Assembly: GCA_035549315.1 (NCBI GenBank)
Contig: DASZRC010000027.1
Coordinates: 4,514-68,513, forward strand
Direction of reading: 5' to 3'
From: Patescibacteria group bacterium
GTDB lineage: Bacteria > Patescibacteriota > Microgenomatia > Levybacterales > GWA1-39-11
DNA: 64,000 nucleotides
The notes below the pieces were generated by a model. It searched no databases, was not told the DNA's origin, and saw only the letters and a program-made list of their open reading frames with translations. Position 1 is the first letter of the stretch. Each line of letters opens with the position of its first letter. This document shows, piece by piece, positions 28,120 through 61,219 of the stretch. The position numbers and the translations under genes are program-made.

Positions 28120-28959
28120 CTAACTTTCACGGCCGTTGCAGATCAGACGAGCAGATTCTTTTATACCTGGCACTCTCTTATGATCTATCTGGTACATTCC
28201 ACTCAATTGTTCATCCGGAACCTTTACCAAATCACAAGTCATAACAATCCCATTATCAATGAACCTGGTTTTTTCTTCTTTTGAAATATCTGTAAGCGTT
28301 GTAACCGGATACATCTTGGGCCTTTCTACAAAGTCTTGAAGATTTCCTTCTTCCGGATAATTCCATGCAAGCGTTTTAACACCTTTACACTCTGCATAAG
28401 TTATGGCGTCTGTTGTAAGCTTGGTATTTGTTGCTACCCAAACAGCATCAATTTTGTTTTTCTCTTTTACATCTAAAAATCTTGCATAGGTATAAAGAAT
28501 TACCTGGACATCAGACTTGCCAAAAGTCTGGTTGTGGAATTTTACTTCTACAATTTCCCTTCTTCCATCTTTTTCGAGGACTATATCTATCTCATGGCTC
28601 ACACACTCACCCTGCATAATTACATCTGTCTGGGTTTTGTAACCTTGGTCTTGAAAGATTGCGGCAAGATATTTTTCAAAAGGGAAGCCTGTTGGCCCCA
28701 GCTCAAAGATTGCTTGGCGGAGATTAAAACGGAGGCCGGCTTTTTTATCTTTGTCTATTAAGAATTCACGGATGTGATAGAAGATTTCATCTGTTGTGAT
28801 GTAGCCGTTTGCCGGTACCTTTTCCCTAATGTGCTCTAGAACTCTATCATGGAGTTCTTTTGGTACGCCAACACGGGTCATGGAGCGGATGACGCGAGCG
28901 TCATCAAACTTAACCTGCTCTCCATTCCGCTTAACTACTATAATAGGTTCACTAGGCAT
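28120..28959 (-). CDS. ATP-cone domain protein fused to a restriction-endonuclease-like (Mrr/PD-(D/E)xK) nuclease domain
   Basis: The N-terminus IIVVKRNGEQVKFDDARVIRSMTRVG is ATP-cone/NrdR-like. The central segment …EIDIVLEKDGRREIVEVKFHN… matches a PD-(D/E)xK core. Confidence 0.55.
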   Translation of the reverse strand: MPSEPIIVVKRNGEQVKFDDARVIRSMTRVGVPKELHDRVLEHIREKVPANGYITTDEIFYHIREFLIDKDKKAGLRFNLRQAIFELGPTGFPFEKYLAAIFQDQGYKTQTDVIMQGECVSHEIDIVLEKDGRREIVEVKFHNQTFGKSDVQVILYTYARFLDVKEKNKIDAVWVATNTKLTTDAITYAECKGVKTLAWNYPEEGNLQDFVERPKMYPVTTLTDISKEEKTRFIDNGIVMTCDLVKVPDEQLSGMYQIDHKRVPGIKESARLICNGRES

Positions 28960-30600: not shown

Positions 30601-31872
30601 GTGCATAGAAAAGTTATTAAAAAATATATTCATGTAATGAAATATATGGGCTCTAAGCGGGAACTATTAGAGCAAATAGAGAAAATCGTGGCCAAGAATC
30701 TACCTGAGGGCGGGGTTCTTTTAGATATATTTGCAGGAACTTGCGGAGTTGGAATTTATCTTAGAGATAAATATCCAATCTACTCTAATGATATTCAACT
30801 GTATTCAGAATTTATATCTAAAGGAACAGTTGAATCTGGCCCTATCCAAGTAAGTCGTGAACAAGTTTGGGCCCTAATTAAGGATGACTATGAGAAAAAT
30901 TACAATCACGTGTACTCTAAGCTTAAAGAGAGCGTTGATTTAAGCAATAAGTTCATTGCAACTAAGACGTGGACTAAACCAATTCTTGCTGAATATTTGA
31001 AATTTATTAAAAGTCTTCCAAACCCAGAAAACATGGAAATGTTTAAAGGCAAGAACTGGCTTGTAGACAAATATATTGAGCGCTCAAATAAAAATTCCTT
31101 GTTTCCCTACATCCAAACTATATTTTTGTTTTCGGAAATGTATTTTAGCCTAGATCAATCACTAAAAATTGACAGCATAAAATATGCAATAGACAAGTTA
31201 TCAGAAAAAAACCTAGCTTTGGGGAATTTAATGAATGTGGCCTTAATTCATGCCTATAGCTATTGCAGCGCAGGAACTGGTCATTTTGCTCAATTTAGAG
31301 ACTTATCAACTCTAAGTTCGGTTACAGATGTATTTTTATATAGAGGTAGAAGCATTGAGGATTATTTTCTTAAAAAAATGGAAGAGTTAATTTTGGCTAC
31401 GCAACTGAATAAATATCATGATTTGAGCAAATCCTTCTCTCAAAACTACACAACGCTACTAGATAATAAGTCAGTTATGTCTAAAGTTGGCCTTATATAT
31501 GCTGACCCGCCCTATTCGTTTGTCCATTACTCAAGATTCTATCATGCTATTGAGGATTTATGCAGGTATGATTATCCAATAGTGCTACATAAAGGAAGAT
31601 ACAGGACAGACCGCCATCAATCTCCTTTCTGCATTAAAACGTTGGCACCTAAAGCATTCAAAGACTTACTAGCTAAGGCAAACAAATTCAAAATACCAGT
31701 TTTAATATCCTACTCTAATACTGGCATGATTAGACTAAGTCAAATAATCAAGATAGCTAACGATATCGGCTACAAAACGGAGCTAACGGAAGTCGCTCAC
31801 AAGCACTCAACGATGGGAAGACTTAAGGATAAAGATCGCGATGTGACTGAAGCCCTAATTTTATGCAATTAG
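30601..31872 (+). CDS. DNA N6-adenine/N4-cytosine amino-methyltransferase (Dam-like D12 class), the M subunit of a Type II R-M system
   Basis: N-terminal YMGSKR and FAGTCGVG (FxGxG) motifs, and a C-terminal IYADPPYS (DPPY) motif. The gene converges on the REase gene with a 4-bp overlap. Alternative in-frame starts at M13 and M16 lie closer to the conserved motif. Confidence 0.75.
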   Translation: MHRKVIKKYIHVMKYMGSKRELLEQIEKIVAKNLPEGGVLLDIFAGTCGVGIYLRDKYPIYSNDIQLYSEFISKGTVESGPIQVSREQVWALIKDDYEKNYNHVYSKLKESVDLSNKFIATKTWTKPILAEYLKFIKSLPNPENMEMFKGKNWLVDKYIERSNKNSLFPYIQTIFLFSEMYFSLDQSLKIDSIKYAIDKLSEKNLALGNLMNVALIHAYSYCSAGTGHFAQFRDLSTLSSVTDVFLYRGRSIEDYFLKKMEELILATQLNKYHDLSKSFSQNYTTLLDNKSVMSKVGLIYADPPYSFVHYSRFYHAIEDLCRYDYPIVLHKGRYRTDRHQSPFCIKTLAPKAFKDLLAKANKFKIPVLISYSNTGMIRLSQIIKIANDIGYKTELTEVAHKHSTMGRLKDKDRDVTEALILCN

Positions 31873-32504
31873 TTCTCTCCTGCTGCTTCTTCTATTTGCT
31901 CTTTAACTTCCTTAACGCACGCATTTTTAGTTATTGCTAAAACTAAAAGAGGACACTCCGCTGCCCCACCACCTATTATTTTTGGCATAAGTTTCCCTAA
32001 ATGCGTAGTAGATGCACCATAAGATGAACCCTTACCCAGTTCATTAAATAACTCTTGCAATTCATCTGCCCTGGTAACTATGATGCCAACACTAACCACG
32101 CCAATCTGATGCAAAAGCCTAAAGTTATTCAAATCCCTATCAAAGAAGGGGTCTTTGTTATTCCATTCTAATTCAACAGCTATCTTGTTCTTATAGTAGT
32201 CGACGTTATGCGTAGGCGAAGGATTACTCGTACCATCTATCACTACATCCACATCCCATTTTTTCTCTTTCCAGCCATTACCGTATAAAACATTATCGAA
32301 TTTTGTTGCAATTGGTGACTTCCTCCCACCCGGGGTAATAATATCTTCGTGAGTTATTTGAAACTGTTGAAGAAGATCCGAAAGCTGTTTTAATTCCTCA
32401 GGGAAATCATTTTTTAGAATAGCGCTAGCATGTCTAAACTCATGGATGTCGAATTTATGCAGTATTTCAGGACTAAATATTGATGTTGATGATAAGCTTG
32501 TCAT
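31869..32504 (-). CDS. Putative Type II restriction endonuclease with a BamHI/BglII-like catalytic core
   Basis: An E-x-E motif in …KIAVELEWNN… followed by a hydrophobic strand (…LLHQIGVVSVGIIV…) resembles the BamHI active-site arrangement (…GMEFETGN…LAIIL…). The gene is co-transcribed downstream of a C-protein gene and converges on an MTase. Confidence 0.45.
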   Translation of the reverse strand: MTSLSSTSIFSPEILHKFDIHEFRHASAILKNDFPEELKQLSDLLQQFQITHEDIITPGGRKSPIATKFDNVLYGNGWKEKKWDVDVVIDGTSNPSPTHNVDYYKNKIAVELEWNNKDPFFDRDLNNFRLLHQIGVVSVGIIVTRADELQELFNELGKGSSYGASTTHLGKLMPKIIGGGAAECPLLVLAITKNACVKEVKEQIEEAAGEN

Positions 32505-32725
32505 TCAAAAAGTCTTTCTATTTTAACATTTAATCCAATTGATATCTTCTGTAAAGATTTAACCGATAAATTTCTGGCCCCTCTTTCAACCGAACCGATA
32601 TAGTTTCTGTGTAGCTTACAAGCTGATGAAAGCTCCTCTTGAGTGATCGCTTTCATCTCTCTGTATTTTTTAATGTTTCCTCCGATAATTTTTAGTATGT
32701 CTGACATGCCATAAAGTATAACCAA
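32501..32725 (-). CDS. Controller (C) protein, an HTH_XRE-family transcriptional regulator of the R-M system
   Basis: 74 aa with a helix-turn-helix (…ITQEELSSACKLHRNYIGSVERGARN…). Its stop overlaps the REase start (ATGA), which is the canonical C-R arrangement. Confidence 0.75.
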   Translation of the reverse strand: MVILYGMSDILKIIGGNIKKYREMKAITQEELSSACKLHRNYIGSVERGARNLSVKSLQKISIGLNVKIERLFE

Positions 32726-32750: not shown

Positions 32751-32770
32751 CCATATCATAGAAGGTATGG
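32751..32770. promoter_or_regulatory. Candidate C-box/operator: inverted repeat CCATA-N10-TATGG, 26-45 bp upstream of the C-protein start
   Basis: Seen in the sequence. Assigning it as an operator is an inference. Confidence 0.25.
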
Positions 32771-32860
32771 ATACAAAATTTATATTATAAAGACTTTTTA
32801 TGCTTTTGATAAATTTTATTCTATTAAAAAATTATTAACCAGAATTTTAAAAAACAAATG

Positions 32861-32896
32861 GCAGCCAAACAACGTCGCCATTATTGGACGAAAAAC
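32861..32896. repeat. Conserved 3'-end motif GCAGCCAAACAACGTCGCCATTATTGGACGAAAAAC, copy A. It starts 9 bp after the stop of 32905..33540.
   Basis: Copy B (33613..33648) shares ~33/36 nt with it. The core GCAGCCAAACAACGT also occurs at 36047..36061. Confidence 0.75.
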
Positions 32897-32904
32897 TTAA
32901 TGGC

Positions 32905-33540
32905 TTAGGGTTCTTCGTGATATTTTTCCATAAACTCCTGTCTCCACTTTTGTAATCTTGCCGCACTTGGACTATTGGGATCCGGAACATAATCTTTATT
33001 ATTTCCGCCCTCTCTATTAAGATTTTGAATAAATCTTTCCATAACTCTAATATTCTGTAATGAGCCCCTATATTTTCTGCTATATGCGAGCTTCTCAATA
33101 ACTTTTGCATCTTTTGGGTCGAAAATTCCCGCTCCATCCTGTGAATTAACAACAACTATATCGTAGACAAAATCCTTTTTCATCTCATCTGCAAGAGGAC
33201 CAACTAAAAACCTCGTCTCTCTAGGGTTAAATTCAATCTCTTTCCATGCCCCCGCATCGCATAAACCCTCAAATATCTCTATTAATTCCTCTCTAAATGA
33301 CGGTGTTATATGAGCCTGTGGAAGTAATCCCCTGACCCCAACCATAATTCTGTCTTTCAATTCTGATGTTCTGGGCACATCTGAAACTTCCATTGCCGGT
33401 AGACCAAATGCTTTCTCTAATGAACTTGGCTCAACCCTCTTAAATCTCATGTCTCTTCTTGGAAGTAAATCATATAAGCCCAATAATTGGTGATTTAAAA
33501 ATTGAGGATCTTGTGGGATTGGAACGCCTTCTGTTGTCAT
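32905..33540 (-). CDS. Hypothetical protein (211 aa). It is the last gene of the minus-strand hypothetical cluster.
   Basis: ORF only. Confidence 0.45.
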   Translation of the reverse strand: MTTEGVPIPQDPQFLNHQLLGLYDLLPRRDMRFKRVEPSSLEKAFGLPAMEVSDVPRTSELKDRIMVGVRGLLPQAHITPSFREELIEIFEGLCDAGAWKEIEFNPRETRFLVGPLADEMKKDFVYDIVVVNSQDGAGIFDPKDAKVIEKLAYSRKYRGSLQNIRVMERFIQNLNREGGNNKDYVPDPNSPSAARLQKWRQEFMEKYHEEP

Positions 33541-33612
33541 TGGATTGAATTATAAATCCAACCAGCAATAAGGTAAAGTACTTTTGAATAAACGGTCAAA
33601 AACGTCCGACCA

Positions 33613-33648
33613 GCAGCCAAACAACGTGGCAATTATTGGACGAAAGAC
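33613..33648. repeat. Conserved 3'-end motif, copy B (GCAGCCAAACAACGTGGCAATTATTGGACGAAAGAC). It overlaps the stop codon of 33633..35150.
   Basis: Seen in the sequence. Confidence 0.75.
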
Positions 33649-35150
33649 GTAGTTACCTGAATTAATTGAGCTAAGTTTCTTTCCTCTCTCATTCTAAGCC
33701 TCAATTCATCCGCTCTAGTAGATAGTCTTTTTCTCTCCTCTGACCATTTTTCGCGGTCCGTATCTGAATTGGCAGCTTGAATCATTCCATCGAGCGCATT
33801 GCTTCCTCTATTTAATGCTTTTAACTCATGTACCATTAAACCTAATTTATTAAATTCCTCGGCTGCAGAAGAACTCGCAATATAAGATCGATTATCCCAA
33901 TCGGCTCTATTAGCTTTGTCCAATTTTCTTATACGTGATGCCGTCTTTGATAGCTCAATGAGAGCATTAGCAGCCCTTCTTGGATCTTTTACGCGGTCAA
34001 AATCCTGCGCAATCTTTAATTGAGTTTGATATAAAAGTTCAAGATAAGTTATTTTTCTTTTCTCCCAAGTCTCCTTATCCTCTGGTTTCAATTTAATCAT
34101 CCCATCTATTCCTGCTAGACAATATATGAGCTGCGTTACCCGCCTAGAAGGATTGGTTTCCGAATCTGCCATTCTCTTATTCCAACCGATATTTTTATCC
34201 AACCATTGACTCTTATCTTCATCTGTATCTGATAACTTAACCAAATTACTTGTAATGAATGCCGCCAAACCATACTCCGCCCTTAGAGATTCTCCATCCT
34301 GCGCAAGATCTATAGAACGAGTTACAGAATTATCTGCAACAACAAACCATTTCCTAGCCTCGTCTTTATTTACCTCACCATATCCAATCGCAGCTGCAGC
34401 CTGAGCAGACCAGTATATATATACTCTCTCCCCATGAGAATTATCACTCCTATGAGAAACTTCTGCTGCTTTCCGTGCATGATCAAACCATATTTCATCC
34501 CATGCTCTCTTATCTTCTGGAGTATTTACATATAACGCCGCTTTTCTCGCTGATTTATGAAGAGTGGCATGAAAAGTAAATTCCCAACCATTGTTTATAA
34601 GAGATACGGAGTCTAGAATATCATGAAGGTTTTTATATGCCTGTTCTAATAAATCTTTTCGTTTTTCTGGATCTTCCTCTATCTCTGCCTGTTCATTTCT
34701 TGCCCAGGCCTGCATGACAGCGGCAGAAAAAACTTGCCCAGATGAATCTGGCAGTTTTAAATCCAAAGCTTTATCTGACCACTTACATGACTCTTCATAC
34801 CAGTTAATCTTAGCAGCTGGCTCAGTCTCTCCGCGGGCGACTTTAAGTGCACTATCACCTAGATTTACGTATGCCAACAACCTGACCTTGGCGGGCATTT
34901 CTAAATGCAAGATTTTTCTAACCGAGTTGAAGGCTCCAAGCGCATTACCGTCCATCATGTCTACTGTACTATTTTTAATAGCACGGTAGATATTGGGTTT
35001 CCTGACCAAATTAGAACCTCTACCCAAACGCCTATTACTACCTTCTTTTTCTAAAAGAGAATTTGCAAGATCTTCCTCGCCCATATATTGCTCAAGAAGT
35101 GATGCAAAATCTTCTTCTGGTTGAGCACCCGGATTGTCTAGTTCTGTCAT
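33633..35150 (-). CDS. Hypothetical protein (505 aa), predicted all-alpha with repeat-like segments and a C-terminal coiled coil
   Basis: The ORF is preceded by a conserved promoter cassette and followed by motif B. Confidence 0.5.
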   Translation of the reverse strand: MTELDNPGAQPEEDFASLLEQYMGEEDLANSLLEKEGSNRRLGRGSNLVRKPNIYRAIKNSTVDMMDGNALGAFNSVRKILHLEMPAKVRLLAYVNLGDSALKVARGETEPAAKINWYEESCKWSDKALDLKLPDSSGQVFSAAVMQAWARNEQAEIEEDPEKRKDLLEQAYKNLHDILDSVSLINNGWEFTFHATLHKSARKAALYVNTPEDKRAWDEIWFDHARKAAEVSHRSDNSHGERVYIYWSAQAAAAIGYGEVNKDEARKWFVVADNSVTRSIDLAQDGESLRAEYGLAAFITSNLVKLSDTDEDKSQWLDKNIGWNKRMADSETNPSRRVTQLIYCLAGIDGMIKLKPEDKETWEKRKITYLELLYQTQLKIAQDFDRVKDPRRAANALIELSKTASRIRKLDKANRADWDNRSYIASSSAAEEFNKLGLMVHELKALNRGSNALDGMIQAANSDTDREKWSEERKRLSTRADELRLRMREERNLAQLIQVTTSFVQ

Positions 35151-35154
35151 GTGC

Positions 35155-35210
35155 GTATTTTATCAAAAAATGAGGCTAAATGCTCAAGGTTAGTTAGGAG
35201 AGGTTAGTTG
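35155..35210 (-). promoter_or_regulatory. Conserved promoter cassette, copy 1. On the minus strand it reads …AACAACTAACCTCTCCTAACTAACCTTGAGCATTTAGCCTCATTTTTTGATAAAATACGCAC-ATG. A TAAAAT -10 lies 6 nt before the start of 33633..35150, and the cassette also contains a remnant of a small-gene 3' end.
   Basis: About 50 of 53 nt are identical to copy 2 at 36971..37024. A diverged third copy lies at 35985..36015. Confidence 0.55.
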
Positions 35211-35299
35211 TTTTTTATTGAGCCACTTACATTATCAGGCAAATTATCAAAATATAATTTCCTTTGATCTTCCTCAAGTTTACCAATCTGTTTTTCATT

Positions 35300-35980
35300 T
35301 TATTTGTTTACTACTGCATACAAATACTTATATGCATCGACTGCAAGCTGTGCGCCCGCAAGAGTAAATTCCGGAATCAACAATCCATGATAATCGGCAG
35401 CAAAAAGCTGTCTCCTCATACTCTTTAGTTGCTCTTCTACTGTTTTTTCTCCAGAATTATCCTTAATTAAAGTATCACTACGTCTTTTTGCTTGATCTAT
35501 TAACTTCAGATAATATTCTGCGTCTTTAACAGCGTCTAGCTCCACGCCGTTTACAACTCTAACATAATCCATTGATTCCTGAACGACTTGTCCCGCGGTT
35601 CCTGCTATATACTCCTCTCCCGAAGAAATCGAATTAATAATTACACCAGCACCCACTGATGCATCAGCCAAAACAAAGAAGTGATTCATTTCATTCTTGC
35701 CCATCTCAACAAGTGCATCTTTACCCATAACCCCGGAAAGATCCACCATTAATCGTGCTGTAATTAAGCCTGGAACGGAATGCCCTTTGCCAGATTCCCT
35801 ACTATCTCTTATTTCTCCCGCAATATCAGTTTTTTTATCCTTAAGCCCTCTCATGAGAGCTTGCTTGTAGCCGGAAAAATAAGCAAGAGTATCTCTTTTA
35901 TCTGCTTTTGACAGATTTCTTGATCTTTCACCCCACATCACCCTGTATGTAAACACTAAATCATTTTCCTGATTTGCCAT
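35300..35980 (-). CDS. Hypothetical protein, 225-aa family paralog P1
   Basis: Shares with 36285..36962 the motifs WG(E/D)RSRNLS, YFSGY(K/R)Q, LADAS, GEEYIAG and an identical 23-aa C-terminus EFTLAGAQLAVDAYKYLYAVVNK. Confidence 0.55.
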   Translation of the reverse strand: MANQENDLVFTYRVMWGERSRNLSKADKRDTLAYFSGYKQALMRGLKDKKTDIAGEIRDSRESGKGHSVPGLITARLMVDLSGVMGKDALVEMGKNEMNHFFVLADASVGAGVIINSISSGEEYIAGTAGQVVQESMDYVRVVNGVELDAVKDAEYYLKLIDQAKRRSDTLIKDNSGEKTVEEQLKSMRRQLFAADYHGLLIPEFTLAGAQLAVDAYKYLYAVVNK

Positions 35981-36046
35981 AACGCGTATTTTACCAAAAT
36001 ATATGCCTAAAAGCTTATTTTATTTTTATATCCTACAAAAAATTGG

Positions 36047-36061
36047 CAGCCAAACAACGTT
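36047..36061. repeat. Core GCAGCCAAACAACGT, copy C
   Basis: Seen in the sequence. The upstream context AAAAATTGGCAGCC resembles copy A. Confidence 0.6.
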
Positions 36062-36164
36062 TCCATACAAGAATTTAAAATTTAGAAATATTTTGACTCA
36101 TATATGAGACAAAATAAATTAAAAGTTAAGATAAAGAATGTAGTTGTTTGTGGAAGAAAGATCT

Positions 36165-36282
36165 AACTATTTCTTATTGGGGATTCAGCATATTCATTTT
36201 CTTTGTAAATATATGCCTGTACCCTTACTGCTCGTAGATACCCACCTTCTTCTTCCTCAATATTTCCGAATCTTTCTTTCAT
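36165..36282 (-). pseudogene. Truncated duplicate (39 codons) of the N-terminus of the small-paralog gene 37356..37706. It sits 2 bp after the stop of paralog P2.
   Basis: ATGAAAGAAAGATTCGGAAATATTGAGGAAGAAGAAGG matches the first ~38 nt of 37356..37706 except for 3 substitutions, and the sequence then diverges to a stop. A more decayed copy (ATGAAAAACAGATTGGTAAACTTGAGGAAGATCAAAGG) lies at ~35220..35290, directly after paralog P1. Confidence 0.55.
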
Positions 36283-36284
36283 TT

Positions 36285-36962
36285 TTATTTGTTTACTACC
36301 GCATACAAATACTTATATGCATCAACTGCTAATTGAGCTCCTGCGAGCGTAAACTCCGGAACCCACAGCCCTCTATATCCCGCAACTGAAAATCCCTTTC
36401 TCAAACTTTTTAATTTATCCTCTACCGTCTTCGCTCCAGAATTATCCTTAATTAAGGCGGAACTACCTAGCTTTGCCTCCTCCATCATCTTTATATATAT
36501 CCCTGCACCACGTACTGCATCTATGCTTGGGTCAAAAGATTCTGCTACATATCCAATAGTTTCGCTCACTTTGTTTTCCGCAATTCCTGCGATATATTCT
36601 TCCCCTTCTGTTACTGAATGCAAGACTAAGGTGGAACCCATGGATGCATCAGCTAAAACTAAAAAATTGTTAACTTTATTCGCCGCCATTTGATTGAGCG
36701 CGTCATGGTCTATTACCCGAGGAATCTCCATCACTAAACGATTGGCTATTAGGCTAGGGACCGAGAGCCTAGTCCTATCTGCTGTAGCAGTCTTTATATC
36801 AGCCACAAGCTCATCCCTCTTATTTTTTAGATCTCTTAATAACGACTGCCTGTATCCGGAGAAGTAGAACATAGCAGCTTTTTTATCTGCTTCCGAAAGA
36901 TTTCTACTTCTATCTCCCCACGCTTCTCTCATTCTAAATACTAATCCAGCTTCATGATTCAT
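36285..36962 (-). CDS. Hypothetical protein, 225-aa family paralog P2
   Basis: Paralogous to 35300..35980. The last ~45 nt of the two genes are nearly identical, and a promoter cassette copy lies upstream. Confidence 0.55.
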   Translation of the reverse strand: MNHEAGLVFRMREAWGDRSRNLSEADKKAAMFYFSGYRQSLLRDLKNKRDELVADIKTATADRTRLSVPSLIANRLVMEIPRVIDHDALNQMAANKVNNFLVLADASMGSTLVLHSVTEGEEYIAGIAENKVSETIGYVAESFDPSIDAVRGAGIYIKMMEEAKLGSSALIKDNSGAKTVEDKLKSLRKGFSVAGYRGLWVPEFTLAGAQLAVDAYKYLYAVVNK

Positions 36963-36970
36963 AATGGTTG

Positions 36971-37024
36971 CATTTTATCAAAAAATGAGGCTAAATGCTC
37001 AAGGTTAATTAGGAGAGGTTAGTG
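36971..37024 (-). promoter_or_regulatory. Conserved promoter cassette, copy 2. It is upstream of paralog P2 and overlaps the last codons and stop of 37009..37353.
   Basis: Near-identical to 35155..35210. Confidence 0.55.
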
Positions 37025-37353
37025 AGCCTTTTTTCCATTGATAGACTTACTTCTATTGCCCTTCTTTTTCTTACTAAGAAATCTACAAAATTCCATTCTA
37101 TTTCCTTTATCTCTCCACCTTTACTTAGAACCTTTTTAATCCTTTCATCTTGTGCATATGTTGGCCCCAAACCAATAACAACTACAGCCTGCATATATTT
37201 ATTACCTTCTATGTATACTGTTGCTCCGGGATTTTGCTTCACAATTCTATCAACTACAAAATACGCCCCGAGCGATTGACGCAGAGATTTAAAAATCGCT
37301 GCCCTAACATATACGCCTTCTTCTTTAAAAATTGGTCCGAGTTTTTCCGCCAT
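37009..37353 (-). CDS. Small hypothetical protein (114 aa), small-paralog family member C
   Basis: Shares the pattern …EEGxYxRxA…NPGAxV…VVVIG… with 37769..38131 and, more loosely, with 37356..37706. Confidence 0.5.
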   Translation of the reverse strand: MAEKLGPIFKEEGVYVRAAIFKSLRQSLGAYFVVDRIVKQNPGATVYIEGNKYMQAVVVIGLGPTYAQDERIKKVLSKGGEIKEIEWNFVDFLVRKRRAIEVSLSMEKRLTNLS

Positions 37354-37355
37354 GA

Positions 37356-37706
37356 TTAGTTACGTCTTATTGGATCCATTTGTCCATTAGAATATTTTTT
37401 GAGTGCTTGATCACTATAAATTCCTTCAACCCTAGAAATAAGATCATCGTCAAATTGCATTATTCGTCCTGATATTGCAAGTGCATTAGTTATCGCCTTA
37501 TCAACTGTTTCCCTGGGTTTTTGCCTTGCACTTACAATAAGGAGAAACTTTTCTCCATAAGGAAGACCTGCGACATTAACGCTTGCACCATTAATAGCTG
37601 CCAATATTCCATCTCCCGCCCAGGAAACTTCATCCTGTGAATCCACTTCTGCAACTCTTAGGTATATTCCTTCCTCTTCCTCAATATTTCCAAATCTTTC
37701 TTTCAT
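37356..37706 (-). CDS. Small hypothetical protein (116 aa), small-paralog family member B. It has weak roadblock/LC7-like character (GDGILAAINGASVNVAGLP).
   Basis: ORF with a 2-bp gap to the downstream gene. Its N-terminus is duplicated twice downstream as decayed fragments. Confidence 0.5.
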   Translation of the reverse strand: MKERFGNIEEEEGIYLRVAEVDSQDEVSWAGDGILAAINGASVNVAGLPYGEKFLLIVSARQKPRETVDKAITNALAISGRIMQFDDDLISRVEGIYSDQALKKYSNGQMDPIRRN

Positions 37707-37768
37707 AGAAAGGAATTATATGATTAAAGTGGGGAAAAGTAAATTTAAGTCACCTCTAAGTTAAGAGG

Positions 37769-38131
37769 TTAGTTGTTTGAGGCAAGCTTTTGCTTTAAGG
37801 ATTCTTCTATTTCTTCTCCTATTCTTTTTCTAAGTAAACCATCAACTACCAACTCATGTACGTTAATTTCTCTTCCATTCTTATCTTTCAAAGCACTCAT
37901 AATATCATTATCAAAACGCCAATAAGATTCATCATCTCCAATAACAATAACCGTACTCATATTCTTATTTCCCGGGGGAACCAAATGCACTTGTGCACCA
38001 GGATTTCTATCTACTATTCCGGAGACGGAATTAAATGCTTTATCCGCTTGTATTGGATCATAGAATATTGCACCCCTTACATACCTTCCTTCGTCCTTCT
38101 CAATAGCGCTTCTTTGTCTTTCATTTTTCAT
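37769..38131 (-). CDS. Small hypothetical protein (120 aa), small-paralog family member A
   Basis: Paralogous to 37009..37353. Confidence 0.5.
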   Translation of the reverse strand: MKNERQRSAIEKDEGRYVRGAIFYDPIQADKAFNSVSGIVDRNPGAQVHLVPPGNKNMSTVIVIGDDESYWRFDNDIMSALKDKNGREINVHELVVDGLLRKRIGEEIEESLKQKLASNN

Positions 38132-38218
38132 AAGTTTTTAATAATTATTATTCTGTGATTTCTTATGCCACAAGTTAAGTATTATAAGATTGATAAGTTA
38201 AAAAGTAAAATTAAGTAG

Positions 38219-38695
38219 CTATTCCTCAAACGGATTAGGGAGAGGATCGCGGGGCGGAAGATATTTAGCATAATAAGCCATAATATGGAGATTCATATCT
38301 ACCCCTAATTCTTGGTATGCTGCCAAATATTTCATTTTTGCTTCCTGAATTCTTAATGCTGCAAGCTCAGGATCAAGGCCACCCAAGACATCATCTACAA
38401 TTCTTTTTCCTATGGGAGGTAGATACAATGTCTGCTCTTTTCTATCCTTATTATAGGAATCTTCCATTAAGCCCCTATTATGGATTCTCCCTCCTAGTAT
38501 ATTTAAGGAATATAAAGTTCTTTGCGCAACATTAGCCTCGGATAAATCAAGAGATGAGTACAAGCCTTTAACTCTGTCTAACTCTTGCCTAGCTGTTTCT
38601 AGTGTAATTTCAGGATAGGGCTCGGGCTCAGGCGCCACATTTTCCGGCTTTCTCCAGAAAGCGAATCTACCAAATTTACCGCGTCTTGATTCCAT
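38219..38695 (-). CDS. Hypothetical protein (158 aa)
   Basis: ORF only. Confidence 0.45.
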   Translation of the reverse strand: MESRRGKFGRFAFWRKPENVAPEPEPYPEITLETARQELDRVKGLYSSLDLSEANVAQRTLYSLNILGGRIHNRGLMEDSYNKDRKEQTLYLPPIGKRIVDDVLGGLDPELAALRIQEAKMKYLAAYQELGVDMNLHIMAYYAKYLPPRDPLPNPFEE

Positions 38696-38731
38696 AATCT
38701 ATATTATAGGTCTAATTGTTTAAAAGTCAAA

Positions 38732-39202
38732 CTAAGATTTTTTACGGGGAAATTGCGGAATTTGATCCGGAGTTACGATACCTCTTTTAACAAGCTCAAA
38801 TAATCTACTGCCATCTGTTATTTGTGCCTTCAATCTATCTATCTCAGCCAAGGCAGCTCTATTCACCCCAGCATCATTTCTTCCTGGATCAACCATTTGT
38901 TCCCGAAAAAACTGGGCTGCTTTCCTAACCCTTACCGATGGCTTATCATAATCCCAACTTTCTCTTGCAGCTTGAACATCGCGAATATTTTCAAAAGATC
39001 TACCATCAAAAAATCCAAAATCCAAATCTGGAATTCTATTATTAATAGCAACTTCATCTGCTATGGCAATTACTTGCGCAGCATTAACAATCCCTTCTCT
39101 TGTTAAAATTTTTCGTGTTCTGGGATCTAAACGTAAAAGCTCAAGTCCCATCTGAGAGAATCGATTTGGCTGATACCTATCTTCTTTTTGATCTGCACTC
39201 AT
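38732..39202 (-). CDS. Hypothetical protein (156 aa)
   Basis: ORF only. Confidence 0.45.
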   Translation of the reverse strand: MSADQKEDRYQPNRFSQMGLELLRLDPRTRKILTREGIVNAAQVIAIADEVAINNRIPDLDFGFFDGRSFENIRDVQAARESWDYDKPSVRVRKAAQFFREQMVDPGRNDAGVNRAALAEIDRLKAQITDGSRLFELVKRGIVTPDQIPQFPRKKS

Positions 39203-39240
39203 AAAACGGATTATAAGATTTTAGATGTGAAGTTGCAAAC

Positions 39241-39921
39241 CTATCCTACAGCAACCGGCTCTTGGGGATGATGCTTGTCATATACTCCCATTATTTCTTC
39301 TAATTTTTCTTTTGCCTCTGTCATTAGCTGGTCATCCGGATTAGCCAATAAAGTTTTGTAATTTTTCCTCATATCAGAAAGCATTTCATCAAGTTCTTCA
39401 ACCCTTGTTGAGTGATTTTCTACAACATAGTAAACAAAGTTGCTATGATATGGGTCATTCTGTGCCGTTAACTCTTCTCCTGGTTTTAAAGGCGTGCGTG
39501 GCCTTCCGCCTTTTTCAACAAGAAAATAATGGTCCCGTCTTATAAAATCTGCAATAAGATCTCTAACCAAAAGCTTTTTATCTATGGGACTATTTGTAAC
39601 TTCTTGATAAAAAGTAGCTACCGCTCCGCTGAAATCTTCCCCAACGCTACCCTGAGTTAAAATCATTCCGGCTTTGTTTTCTCTAGGATGATTACCGGAC
39701 AAAACTACATTTGCCATCTTTCCCTCAAGGGCAGAATCCAACCCGACGTCTTCCACTAGTTCGTCTGTCATAACCCAATCAGGCCTAATACTTTTTGCAT
39801 ATGAAAACATTTTTCTTTGAGCAAGCTTATCTCCTTGAGAAAGCGGGAATGTTGCAAAAACAATTGCTTTTGCTTTATCTGCTGTGAGTGGGGGATATTG
39901 CCCTGGCTTCTCTTCTTCCAT
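39241..39921 (-). CDS. Hypothetical protein (226 aa), the first gene of the minus-strand cluster
   Basis: ORF only. It has weak, unconvincing similarity to the P1/P2 family in its central region. Confidence 0.45.
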   Translation of the reverse strand: MEEEKPGQYPPLTADKAKAIVFATFPLSQGDKLAQRKMFSYAKSIRPDWVMTDELVEDVGLDSALEGKMANVVLSGNHPRENKAGMILTQGSVGEDFSGAVATFYQEVTNSPIDKKLLVRDLIADFIRRDHYFLVEKGGRPRTPLKPGEELTAQNDPYHSNFVYYVVENHSTRVEELDEMLSDMRKNYKTLLANPDDQLMTEAKEKLEEIMGVYDKHHPQEPVAVG

Positions 39922-55231: not shown

Positions 55232-55255
55232 GTTATAGGCAATAGGTATTAGGGG

Positions 55256-55328
55256 TGGGCGCGATAGGACTCGAACCTATGACCAGGTGTGTATAAGACA
55301 CCCGCTCTACCAACTGAGCTACACGCCC
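55256..55328 (-). tRNA. tRNA-Ile with a genomically encoded UAU anticodon
   Basis: A canonical 73-nt cloverleaf: acceptor GGGCGTG/CGCGCCC, D-arm TAGCTCAGTTGGTAGAGC, anticodon stem GGTGT/ACACC, loop CTTATAC and T-loop GGTTCGAGTCC. Confidence 0.8.
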
Positions 55329-60781: not shown

Positions 60782-61193
60782 GGGGATGCATTGCATCGAC
60801 AAGGTTGCTCATTAAAAACTGCAAGCCGATAATGATACTAATCGCAAAATTGTATCAAAAATAAATGCTGACGGAGTTATATCCAAAGGCCGTGGGTTAA
60901 TGCCAAAATTGGCAGATGCCTTCTCACCAAAAGCTTATGCTTTTAGTGGGTTAGCTGCTTAAAAAACAGCCACTATTTACACCGTTTCTTTTCTCAAGCG
61001 GATAGGTGTAGGTAAAAACAAAGTTTGAGATAGGATAAGGAAGTTGATTTGGTCCTTACTCCAAAACTAAGAATCTTGGAATTGTTTTCCCCGCCAATTG
61101 GGTCAGAACAAGACGACAATTAAGATTTGGCTAAGCTTGTAGATGTTTTTAGAGAGTCAATTTTGGACGAGGGTTCATTACCCTCCATCTCCA
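60782..61193 (+). ncRNA. ssrA: tmRNA (SsrA), ~412 nt
   Basis: The 5' end GGGGATGCATTGCATCGACAAGG pairs with the 3' end CATCTCC-A to form an acceptor stem carrying the G3·U70 alanine identity pair. T-arm GAGGG-TTCATTA-CCCTC. An internal tag ORF ends …AYAFSGLAA-TAA. The gene lies immediately downstream of smpB. Confidence 0.7.
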
Positions 61194-61219
61194 CAAAAGT
61201 TAGTAGTAGAGCATACCCA

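Follow-up and report, generated by a model that had tools for sequence, protein, structure and literature searches.

A 15-nt sequence occurs three times within a 3.2-kb stretch of a gene cluster in the window, i.e., the whole 64,000-nt stretch of DNA that was analyzed, and its copies lie at the seams between unrelated gene modules. Two nested direct repeats overlap in this sequence, and one of them carries the last codons of a neighboring gene to a site where they are no longer coding. The reading that we tentatively prefer is that the motif may represent an att-like target that was duplicated when two modules were inserted in succession. The original prediction had favored a terminator or RNA-processing element, which is not supported by the analyses described below.

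Copies of the motif and their occurrence

The motif reads GCAGCCAAACAACGT on the plus strand, which corresponds to ACGTTGTTTGGCTGC on the strand of the genes, and exact copies are present at three positions:

32861..32875, minus strand: 15-nt core of copy A, starting 29 nt past the stop of a 211-aa gene
33613..33627, minus strand: 15-nt core of copy B, starting 5 nt past the stop of a 505-aa gene
36044..36060, minus strand: copy C, consisting of the core (36046–36060) and 2 nt, together 17 nt that are identical to copy A

Three exact copies had been predicted; the count and the starts at 32861 and 33613 hold, and the third start moves from 36047 to 36046. Two of the predicted distances need correction. 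Copy A had been placed 9 bp past the stop of the gene at 32905..33540, which agrees neither with the core (29 nt) nor with the 39-nt repeat around it (5 nt). Copy B had been thought to overlap the stop of the 505-aa gene; the 15-mer starts after this stop, and only the longer repeat that copy B shares with copy A covers the codons for F, V, and Q and the stop. Copy C does lie downstream of a truncated small-gene copy, as described.

By chance, 0.14 copies of the 15-mer would be expected, and none of 100 shuffles contained three or more. All three copies, together with their spacing, are reproduced in two independent Logan assemblies and are therefore no assembly artifact. A mismatch search of the window revealed no fourth copy with two or fewer mismatches, and the window plus 14 kb of flanking contig (~78 kb) contained neither further copies at up to three mismatches nor nhmmer profile matches below E = 3. 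Scanning of public collections with ATKGNNACGTTGTTTGGCTGC gave 3 genome, 9 metagenome, and 5 viral stretches, some contigs being common to the metagenome and viral results. The flanks were read for the genome and metagenome matches, all of which turned out to be unrelated, higher-GC coding DNA, and the motif was not found in related DNA by the genome, metagenome, or viral scans. Hence, as far as the contig (~78 kb) and the public collections searched are concerned, the motif is confined to the locus, with no copy in the other ~75 kb of the contig. Lack of enrichment outside the locus had been set beforehand as the first of two observations that together would refute the prediction, and no enrichment was seen in either the contig or the public scans.

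Each copy is intergenic and has the same orientation; a unit ends with its stop on one side, the promoter of the following unit lies on the other, and the adjoining units are unrelated. The idea that the motif marks unit boundaries is borne out by these positions. Seven other intergenic gaps of the same cluster contain no copy (0/7). In the three copies, the next −10 box lies 60, 66, and 148 nt from the center of the core, and these distances show no shared phase. The palindrome TGGCTGCCA, which had been attributed to the core in general, is found in copies A and C only; copy B reads TGGCTGCTG.

Genes, promoters, and shared patches of the cluster

The following features of the cluster are relevant to the interpretation of the motif:

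32905..33540, minus strand: 211-aa gene of a small uncharacterized family, bracketed by copies B and A in a unit of 752 bp
33549..33577, minus strand: promoter-like site of the 211-aa gene, TTTACC-17-TATAAT, with the −10 box ending 8 nt before the ATG
33633..35150, minus strand: 505-aa orphan gene, predicted to be all-alpha, with its 3' end within the repeat shared by copies A and B
35157..35208, minus strand: promoter module of 52 nt, 98% identical to 36972–37023, with a partial third copy at 35984–36015
35300..35980, minus strand: 226-aa gene L2, a paralog of L1 (36285–36962, 52% amino acid identity)
36164..36283, minus strand: truncated copy of a small-gene family (39-aa ORF), with copy C ~105 nt downstream of its stop

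Lineage-specific and heavily rearranged, the cluster forms a mosaic in which orphan paralogs are combined with short near-identical patches at module boundaries. The paralogs share 27–52% amino acid identity and, within the same 5 kb, DNA patches of 15–52 nt that are 95–100% identical; two truncated gene copies are present. The genes that flank each motif copy are unrelated to those at the other two copies, and because the neighbors thus differ in kind, the motif was not simply carried in a tandem duplication. Copies A and B bracket one complete unit, composed of the promoter-like site and the 211-aa gene, and the 2,433-bp segment that separates copies C and B opens with the 226-aa gene L2. 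The close spacing between the −10 box and the ATG of the 211-aa gene implies a leaderless transcript; the literature searched contained nothing pertinent on leaderless transcription in CPR bacteria.

Searches of Pfam, PADLOC, PHROGs, NCBIfam, and the PDB gave no credible match that would indicate a function for the cluster proteins, and no DNA-binding domain was detected in them; a stretch resembling a helix-hairpin-helix is present in the 156-aa protein of the cluster. The AlphaFold models are poor (pLDDT of 54 for the 505-aa protein and 44 for the 211-aa protein) and fall below what is of use for a fold search. For the 505-aa and 226-aa proteins, no homologs were found beyond their own paralogs. 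The family of the 211-aa protein has 45 representatives in 1.84 billion proteins; of the two homologs that are its only close ones (59% and 52%), one is encoded near typA and an AAA ATPase and the other near a Phd-like antitoxin. The motif is absent near both, and no flanking repeats were found around 211-aa homologs. Exact-protein look-ups for other strains led back to the same MAG contig and to Logan contigs of the same run, and to nothing else. In base composition, the region does not stand out from the rest of the window. The cluster adjoins restriction-modification genes, glycosyltransferase genes are likewise among those flanking the locus, and a separate palindrome at 32751–32774 is a probable C-box.

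Two nested direct repeats

Copies A and B are parts of a longer direct repeat, the boundaries of which are as follows:

32861..32899, minus strand: copy A of the full A/B repeat, 39 nt at 90% with an inner 33 nt at 94%, starting 5 nt past the stop of the 211-aa gene
33613..33651, minus strand: copy B of the full A/B repeat, covering the codons for S, F, V, and Q and the stop (33633–33635) of the 505-aa gene

The A/B repeat measures 33 nt with two mismatches or, at the lower identity, 39 nt, of which 15 nt are exact; the extension of ~36 nt proposed previously is real and differs in its measured length. The direct repeat shared by copies A and C is an exact 17 nt, TGGCAGCCAAACAACGT. Among the flanking sequences, the 23 nt 5' of the core in copies A and B are the only significantly similar ones (p < 0.002), and the remaining flanks, including both of copy C, are at chance level. 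The core is therefore the intersection of the 39-nt A/B repeat and the 17-nt A/C repeat.

The two ends of the A/B repeat differ in coding status. In copy B, TTTCGTCCAATAA codes for F-V-Q-stop of the 505-aa gene; the identical string in copy A has no coding role and comes after the natural EEP-stop end that is conserved in the 211-aa family. This comparison of strings shows copy A to be a displaced copy of the 3' end of the neighboring gene, which is a classic signature of insertion.

Possible readings of the motif as an RNA signal, a binding site, or a neutral remnant

Two hairpin-forming sequences lie close to the motif without being part of it:

33593..33612, minus strand: hairpin and T-run, UGGUCGGA-CGUU-UUUGACCG UUUAUU, directly 3' of copy B
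36089..36116, no strand assigned: AT-rich palindrome of 28 nt just 5' (on the gene strand) of copy C, forming a significant hairpin (z = −3.05)

That the motif would be part of an intrinsic terminator, or of an RNA 3'-end processing signal for the upstream gene, is in our judgment quite unlikely, even though its location has some of the expected traits. It is found downstream of stops on the transcribed strand, terminators are to be expected between units because each gene has its own promoter, and a T-tract follows the motif on the gene strand, as had been noted (T3GT6 2 nt after core A, T6 4 nt after core C, and T5 13 nt after core B). The AATGGC/GCCATT stem proposed for copy A exists as well, in the form of a 7-bp stem, AAUGGCG/UGCCAUU, that is followed by UGUUUUUU. 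Folding of the three copies, on both strands and with two window sizes, revealed no hairpin common to all three. The folding of the transcribed strand, which had been suggested as a check, yielded no copy that was significant relative to shuffles, with local folds of −8.1 kcal/mol for A (z = −0.67), −14.3 for B (z = −1.25), and −2.1 for C (z = +1.36), and z values of −1.15, −1.02, and +1.34, respectively, for 76-nt folds. At the positions of the copy A stem, copy B reads AAUUGCC/UGCUGGU and copy C reads UAUGGAA/UGCCAAU, i.e., pairing is broken and there is no compensation. In the copy A stem, the only decent one, the invariant 15 nt fall in the loop and 3' arm, which is the opposite of the conservation pattern of a hairpin signal. 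In addition, the 505-aa gene has a better terminator candidate in the separate hairpin and T-run 3' of copy B, a far better hairpin lies ahead of copy C, no other gene end in the 78 kb carries the motif, and Rfam gave no match at the motif, either at the gathering threshold or at E values up to 10.

A sequence-specific function could equally account for the invariance of all 15 nt across the three copies; the motif might serve as an operator, roadblock, or insulator, in DNA or in RNA, to which a factor encoded at the locus or acting in trans would bind. Such a site would separate adjacent, independently promoted leaderless units, which agrees with the uniform orientation and stop-to-promoter placement of the copies and with a conserved core in copy C amid random flanks. 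Copy C also contains the palindrome TTGGCTGCCAA within the motif, and the coincidence of other short conserved patches with promoter modules indicates that nucleotide-level constraint occurs at this locus. We nevertheless regard a binding site as unlikely: conservation is asymmetric, the palindrome being perfect only in C and broken in B, the distances to the −10 boxes share no phase, seven other gaps of the cluster lack the motif and the remainder of the 78 kb holds nothing similar, and the cluster proteins show no detectable DNA-binding domain. The near-identical patches inside old paralogs point to yet another origin, namely that the copies are neutral leftovers of local gene conversion or illegitimate recombination between intergenic regions, in a locus with frequent exchange of short tracts, and have no meaning as a site. 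This origin seems improbable, as those patches connect positions that are paralogous, whereas the neighbors of the motif copies are non-homologous, so that conversion would have had to proceed without starting homology; moreover, all three copies fall exactly at module seams.

Other candidates were tried and rejected. For a relic of an IS4-family transposase, in which the 15-mer codes for TLFGC of RWxIETLFGCLK in three database matches, tblastn of three such transposases against the window gave the motif sites only, at E = 13 and E = 34. A small plus-strand ORF, which in copy A reads MAAKQRRHYWTKNLMA followed by a stop, has no start in copy B and diverges after six codons in copy C, and every in-frame difference between A and B alters an amino acid. 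Integron attC, Xer/dif, sigma-54, parS, CtsR, and C-box sites were compared by eye, and none fits the motif.

A proposed target of successive insertions

We return to the duplicated att-like target as our preferred, still tentative, reading. One short target just 3' of an ancestral gene end would have been used twice for insertion or duplicative recombination, with each module event duplicating the target. One event would have placed the 2,433-bp segment, containing the 226-aa gene, the small-gene remnant, the promoter module, and the 505-aa gene, between copy C and the common precursor of A and B. Subsequently, another event would have placed the 752-bp unit, i.e., the 211-aa gene with its own promoter, between B and A, thereby duplicating 39 nt that include the 505-aa gene's terminal codons with the stop. 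The repeats would then be scars rather than transcription signals and would at most permit loss of a module by recombination between direct repeats.

In favor of this scenario, an identical core is present in direct orientation on both sides of the segments. When the segments were assessed as foreign or variable DNA, as would befit an att core, the 211-aa homologs were found in unrelated contexts and the 2,433-bp segment consists of orphans, and the composition is not distinct. Pfam scans of ORFs and precomputed tables for the flanks revealed no recombinase (integrase, transposase, or other) in the window or the adjacent 14 kb, and no relative with an empty site or a different cassette content was found, the cluster proteins being orphans. 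Against an attP model, the 3' flanks of copies C and B, which would be the incoming arms, are not similar. We infer that insertions occurred, that they had the order given above, and that the target is a past or present att-like hot spot; the scenario, drawn from just three copies in a single genome, is a reconstruction and not a demonstration.

A more far-reaching possibility, which we consider highly improbable, is a minimal cassette system in a CPR bacterium with the 15-mer as its live crossover core. In such a system, individual leaderless modules with their own promoters would be gained and lost at one short site, either by means of a recombinase encoded elsewhere or through transformation-driven recombination. 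A possible layout is nGCnAC-GTTGTTTG-GCTGCn, in which imperfect inverted arms enclose an 8-nt overlap shared without change by all copies. To our knowledge, essentially no mechanism of gene-cassette exchange has been described for CPR bacteria.

If the copies do mark seams as read here, the locus records how small modules, each transcribed independently, were added step by step at one spot and illustrates how a Patescibacteria genome builds a lineage-specific accessory cluster. This would be a modest, local insight, and it would gain greater weight only if the site turned out to be an active target of recombination. The practical point is a negative one: the motif offers no reusable terminator or regulatory signal for the annotation of genomes of this kind.

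Comparison with known repeat systems

The motif resembles intrinsic terminators in its position after stop codons with a T-run downstream on the transcribed strand, but it has no conserved G+C-rich stem, its conserved positions are unpaired, and its folding energies are at the level of shuffles. Like REP/BIME elements and MITEs, it is a short intergenic repeat located at the 3' ends of genes; unlike these, it is not dispersed and has neither terminal inverted repeats nor a stable palindrome. Xer/dif modules (IMEX, pdif) likewise are recombinase-less and bracketed by a short recurrent site. However, no 11-6-11 architecture with partly palindromic arms is visible here, and pdif sites alternate in orientation, whereas the present copies are all direct.

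Integron cassettes, including integrase-less clusters, share with the locus the arrangement of small co-oriented cassettes with a recurrent site after each ORF, and one cassette here is a single gene. The motif differs from attC in having GTTGTTT instead of GTTRRRY, i.e., pyrimidines at R positions, with no RYYYAAC at a suitable distance, and in the absence of a 57- to 141-nt imperfect palindrome and of significant folds at the motif. Furthermore, the modules described here carry their own promoters, and no IntI-type tyrosine recombinase was found in the window or flanks. The hypothetical cassette system outlined above would thus have a logic similar to that of integrons, without attC hairpins or a linked integrase.

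Site-specifically integrated elements with attL/attR core repeats, including tandem islands that share one att site in an attL-element1-attI-element2-attR organization, differ from the locus in several respects: the segments are tiny (752 and 2,433 bp) and have no integrase in or near them, the incoming arms are not alike, and neither an empty site nor a circular form was seen. What the locus has in common with such elements is an identical direct core that delimits two adjacent segments, taken here as inserted, and a putative target at a gene 3' end with displaced last codons at the far junction; the presumed inserted gene may also be patchily distributed in other genomes.

Copies of the motif and their genomic setting

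The 15-mer GCAGCCAAACAACGT occurs on the plus strand of the window at 32861, 33613, and 36046 (exact search); the original prediction had the number of copies right but placed the third at 36047. No further matches with up to two mismatches were found in the window. The chance expectation is 0.14, and three copies were present in 0 of 100 dinucleotide shuffles. Every gene in the area around the motif is on the minus strand, where the 15-mer reads ACGTTGTTTGGCTGC. The features discussed here are:

32861–32875, 33613–33627, and 36046–36060 (+), copies A, B, and C of the motif
32905–33540 (−), 211-aa gene, between copies B and A
33633–35150 (−), 505-aa gene
35300–35980 (−), 226-aa gene L2
36285–36962 (−), its 225-aa paralogue L1
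36164–36283 and ~35218–35300, truncated or degenerate copies of the small-gene family
37009–38131 (−), small genes S1–S3
33549–33554, 35988–35993, 35157–35162, 38703–38708, and 39210–39215, examples of −10 sites

Copies B and A, with their 752-nt spacing, were recovered in one Logan assembly (L001) and copy C, with the same neighbors, in another (L026). These are two independent assemblies of the same sequencing run, and their agreement indicates that the repeats are not an assembly artifact.

The window lies on a 164-kb contig of a Patescibacteria (CPR) MAG and contains tRNAs and a tmRNA. A tRNA-Ile with the anticodon TAT (UAU) is located at 55254–55328 on the minus strand (ARAGORN prediction and Rfam tRNA match); a UAU tRNA-Ile is uncommon in bacteria, where AUA is normally decoded by a CAU anticodon that carries a modification. 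The predicted tag peptide of the tmRNA (60782–61194, plus strand) is unusually long, with 30 residues (ADGVISKGRGLMPKLADAFSPKAYAFSGLAA).

The motif lies inside a block of ten co-oriented genes (32905–39921, minus strand), none of which has a Pfam, NCBIfam, or PADLOC match or a credible PHROGs match. Among 5.8 billion proteins, the only homologues of the 505-aa protein and the 225/226-aa pair are these proteins themselves. The 211-aa family has 45 representatives in 1.84 billion proteins (exhaustive profile search), and searches for Pfam or PDB relatives returned none. By eye, the stretch LELLRLDPRTRKILTREGIVNAAQV in a 156-aa orphan (38732–39202, minus strand) resembles the helix-hairpin-helix of the RNA polymerase alpha C-terminal domain; profile searches gave no supporting match.

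The genes downstream of copy A form a restriction-modification unit, with an HTH C-protein (HTH_3), a BglII-like endonuclease, and a convergent D12 adenine methylase. Together with an Mrr-like endonuclease carrying an ATP-cone, these genes occupy 30601–32725 and 28120–28959, which looks like a defense neighborhood. The ATG at 32707, with TATACT 7 nt upstream, is the probable, leaderless start of the C gene, and the palindrome at 32751–32774 (CCATATCATAGAAGGTATGG) could be its C-box.

Anatomy of the repeats

The 60-nt flanks of the three copies were compared and evaluated against shuffled controls. The sole similar pair comprises the 23 nt located 5′ of the core (the shared 15 nt) in copies A and B (p < 0.002), all remaining pairs being at chance level. 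The 15-mer is thus the intersection of two nested direct repeats, one shared by A and B (−24 to +15) and one shared by A and C (+1 to +17). The A/B extension is TTTCGTCCAATAATnGCnACGTTGTTTGGCTGC, 33 nt with 2 mismatches, or alternatively 39 nt at 90% identity, and the A/C identity is 17 nt exact.

In copy B, the 5′ extension is coding and forms the end of the 505-aa gene (..TCT TTC GTC CAA TAA, i.e., S F V Q stop). In copy A, the same string is noncoding and comes after the stop of the 211-aa gene; the C terminus of the 211-aa protein (..EEP-stop) is conserved among its homologues. Copy A thus repeats the 3′ end of the neighboring 505-aa gene at a displaced position. Exactly one unit, consisting of a promoter and the 211-aa gene (752 bp), lies between B and A. 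Only two proteins are closely related to the 211-aa protein (59% and 52%). They are encoded on other contigs in unrelated neighborhoods, one between typA and an AAA ATPase and the other upstream of a Phd-like antitoxin; neither the motif nor any flanking repeats were found around them. The genes flanking A, B, and C are mutually unrelated, which argues against tandem duplications having merely brought the motif with them.

Distribution beyond the locus

Allowing three mismatches, the window holds no other copy except one chance match, with three mismatches, inside a gene, and none lies in 4.7 kb and 9.3 kb of additional contig sequence. An nhmmer profile of the three copies gave nothing below E = 3. 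The pattern ATKGNNACGTTGTTTGGCTGC, which matches all three copies, retrieved 3 stretches from 185,579 species-representative genomes, 9 from JGI metagenomes, and 5 from IMG/VR. The flanks were read for the genome and metagenome sets, and all of these stretches lie in unrelated coding DNA of higher G+C; some of the IMG/VR matches are the same contigs as metagenome matches. Three metagenome and genome matches (L004, L012, and L013) belong to unrelated organisms and are IS4-like transposases, whose RWxIETLFGCLK motif has its TLFGC encoded by the 15-mer. A relic of such a transposase was considered, and tblastn against the window revealed no similarity past the motif (E = 13 and 34), showing the match to be a coincidence, albeit one that could mislead database searches with this motif. 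Within the contig sequence and collections searched, the motif is thus restricted to the locus, which bears out one half of the refutation that the original prediction had named for itself.

Promoters and transcript ends

Nearly all genes of the block have their own predicted sigma-70-type promoter, with a −10 box ending 6 to 9 nt before the ATG. In the whole window, 29 of the 60 ORF starts have a −10-like hexamer (TAnWMT, in many cases with TG upstream of it) that ends 5 to 10 nt before them, with a sharp peak in distance at 6 to 7 nt, and such a hexamer is found near the start in 8/10 cluster genes. Shine-Dalgarno-like sequences are rare in the window. With the −10 box at so short a distance from the ATG, the block genes look like independent, leaderless units, and leaderless mRNAs appear to be the main mode of this MAG for the first genes of units.

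Each motif copy falls after the stop of one unit and ahead of the promoter of the following one. Since this is where a terminator would be expected, the proposal that the motif is an intrinsic terminator or processing site was tested by folding the transcribed strand. Folds of 76 nt (z = −1.15, −1.02, and +1.34 for A, B, and C, respectively) and of ~41 to 59 nt (z = −0.67, −1.25, and +1.36) were not better than shuffles, and a shared stem is absent. A reasonable stem is formed in copy A only (AAUGGCG/UGCCAUU, then UGUUUUUU); its positions are mismatched in B and C without compensation, and the invariant bases correspond to the loop and 3′ arm, the reverse of the conservation expected for a hairpin signal. 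Copy B is followed by a separate hairpin and T-run (33593–33612) outside the motif. Copy C is preceded by an AT-rich 28-nt palindrome (36089–36116) between the truncated small gene and the motif, which is the only significantly stable hairpin of the area (81-nt fold, z = −3.05, 0/200 shuffles) and itself a candidate terminator or operator. No Rfam family matched the motif, even with the E threshold relaxed to 10. Hence, given the shuffle-level folds, the uncompensated mismatches, and the lack of an Rfam match, the terminator reading is not supported and seems improbable, its fitting position notwithstanding.

Short identity patches and local recombination

The block contains two sets of paralogues, L1/L2 (52% amino acid identity) and the small genes S1–S3 (27–40%). 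One truncated or degenerate small-gene copy follows each L paralogue, which implies a putative ancestral tandem array of small-gene, promoter, L-gene units. Besides the motif, other near-identity patches occur at module boundaries in the same 5 kb. A 52-nt module consisting of a small-gene 3′ end and an extended −10 promoter precedes both the 505-aa and the 225-aa gene, which are unrelated; the two copies are 98% identical (35157–35208 versus 36972–37023), and a partial third one (35984–36015, 81%) precedes the 226-aa gene. L1 and L2 share 96% identity over their last 47 nt (35298–35344 versus 36283–36329), for proteins that are only 52% identical. This patch continues past the stop and reaches into the beginning of the following small gene, and the codons before it differ at most synonymous sites; a second patch of 22 nt is 100% identical (35449–35470 versus 36434–36455). 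These L1/L2 patches suggest gene conversion over short tracts or a promoter embedded in the sequence. Near-identity is also seen between one small gene, over its first 38 nt, and its truncated copy. Evidently, the cluster was built and reshuffled by repeated local recombination.

Origin of the copies and relation to known systems

The best explanation, which we put forward tentatively, is that the copies are junction repeats of module insertion or duplicative recombination. The target would have been a short sequence lying directly after the end of a gene. It would have been used twice, each time for the insertion or duplicative recombination of a self-contained module, and each event would have duplicated it. 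This model would explain the nesting of the two repeats and their sharp identity borders, the noncoding 505-aa gene end in copy A, the unrelated neighbors at each copy, and the restriction to the locus and lack of structure. The sequence shows the anatomy of the repeats, and the history of insertions and any att-like activity are what we infer. Counting against the model, neither the window nor 14 kb of added contig yielded a recombinase (integrase or transposase), no related genome with an empty site was found, the arms of the presumed incoming elements are dissimilar to each other, and the region has no compositional signature; as a reconstruction, it falls somewhat short of being probable.

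A sequence-specific protein or RNA recognition site would fit the perfect conservation of 15 nt next to the random flanks of copy C, but we consider it unlikely, because the conservation is asymmetric, the spacing to the next −10 box is inconsistent (60, 66, and 148 nt), and the cluster has seven further gaps in which the motif is missing. That the copies join nonhomologous positions speaks against neutral conversion patches without meaning as a site, and we regard these as about as improbable as a terminator. The feature is real but local, and probably historical; a live cassette exchange site with no linked integrase, in a CPR genome, is hardly to be expected.

The closest working likeness is to the att cores flanking integrated elements, the copies resembling attL/attI/attR of tandem insertions at one att site. 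The likeness to an integron cassette array is superficial, as the motif fails the attC tests (no GTTRRRY/RYYYAAC, no imperfect palindrome, and no IntI), and it does not qualify as a Xer/dif site, a REP/MITE repeat, or a member of an Rfam family either. All that we claim for the motif is one more case of short direct repeats at junctions of insertions or duplications.
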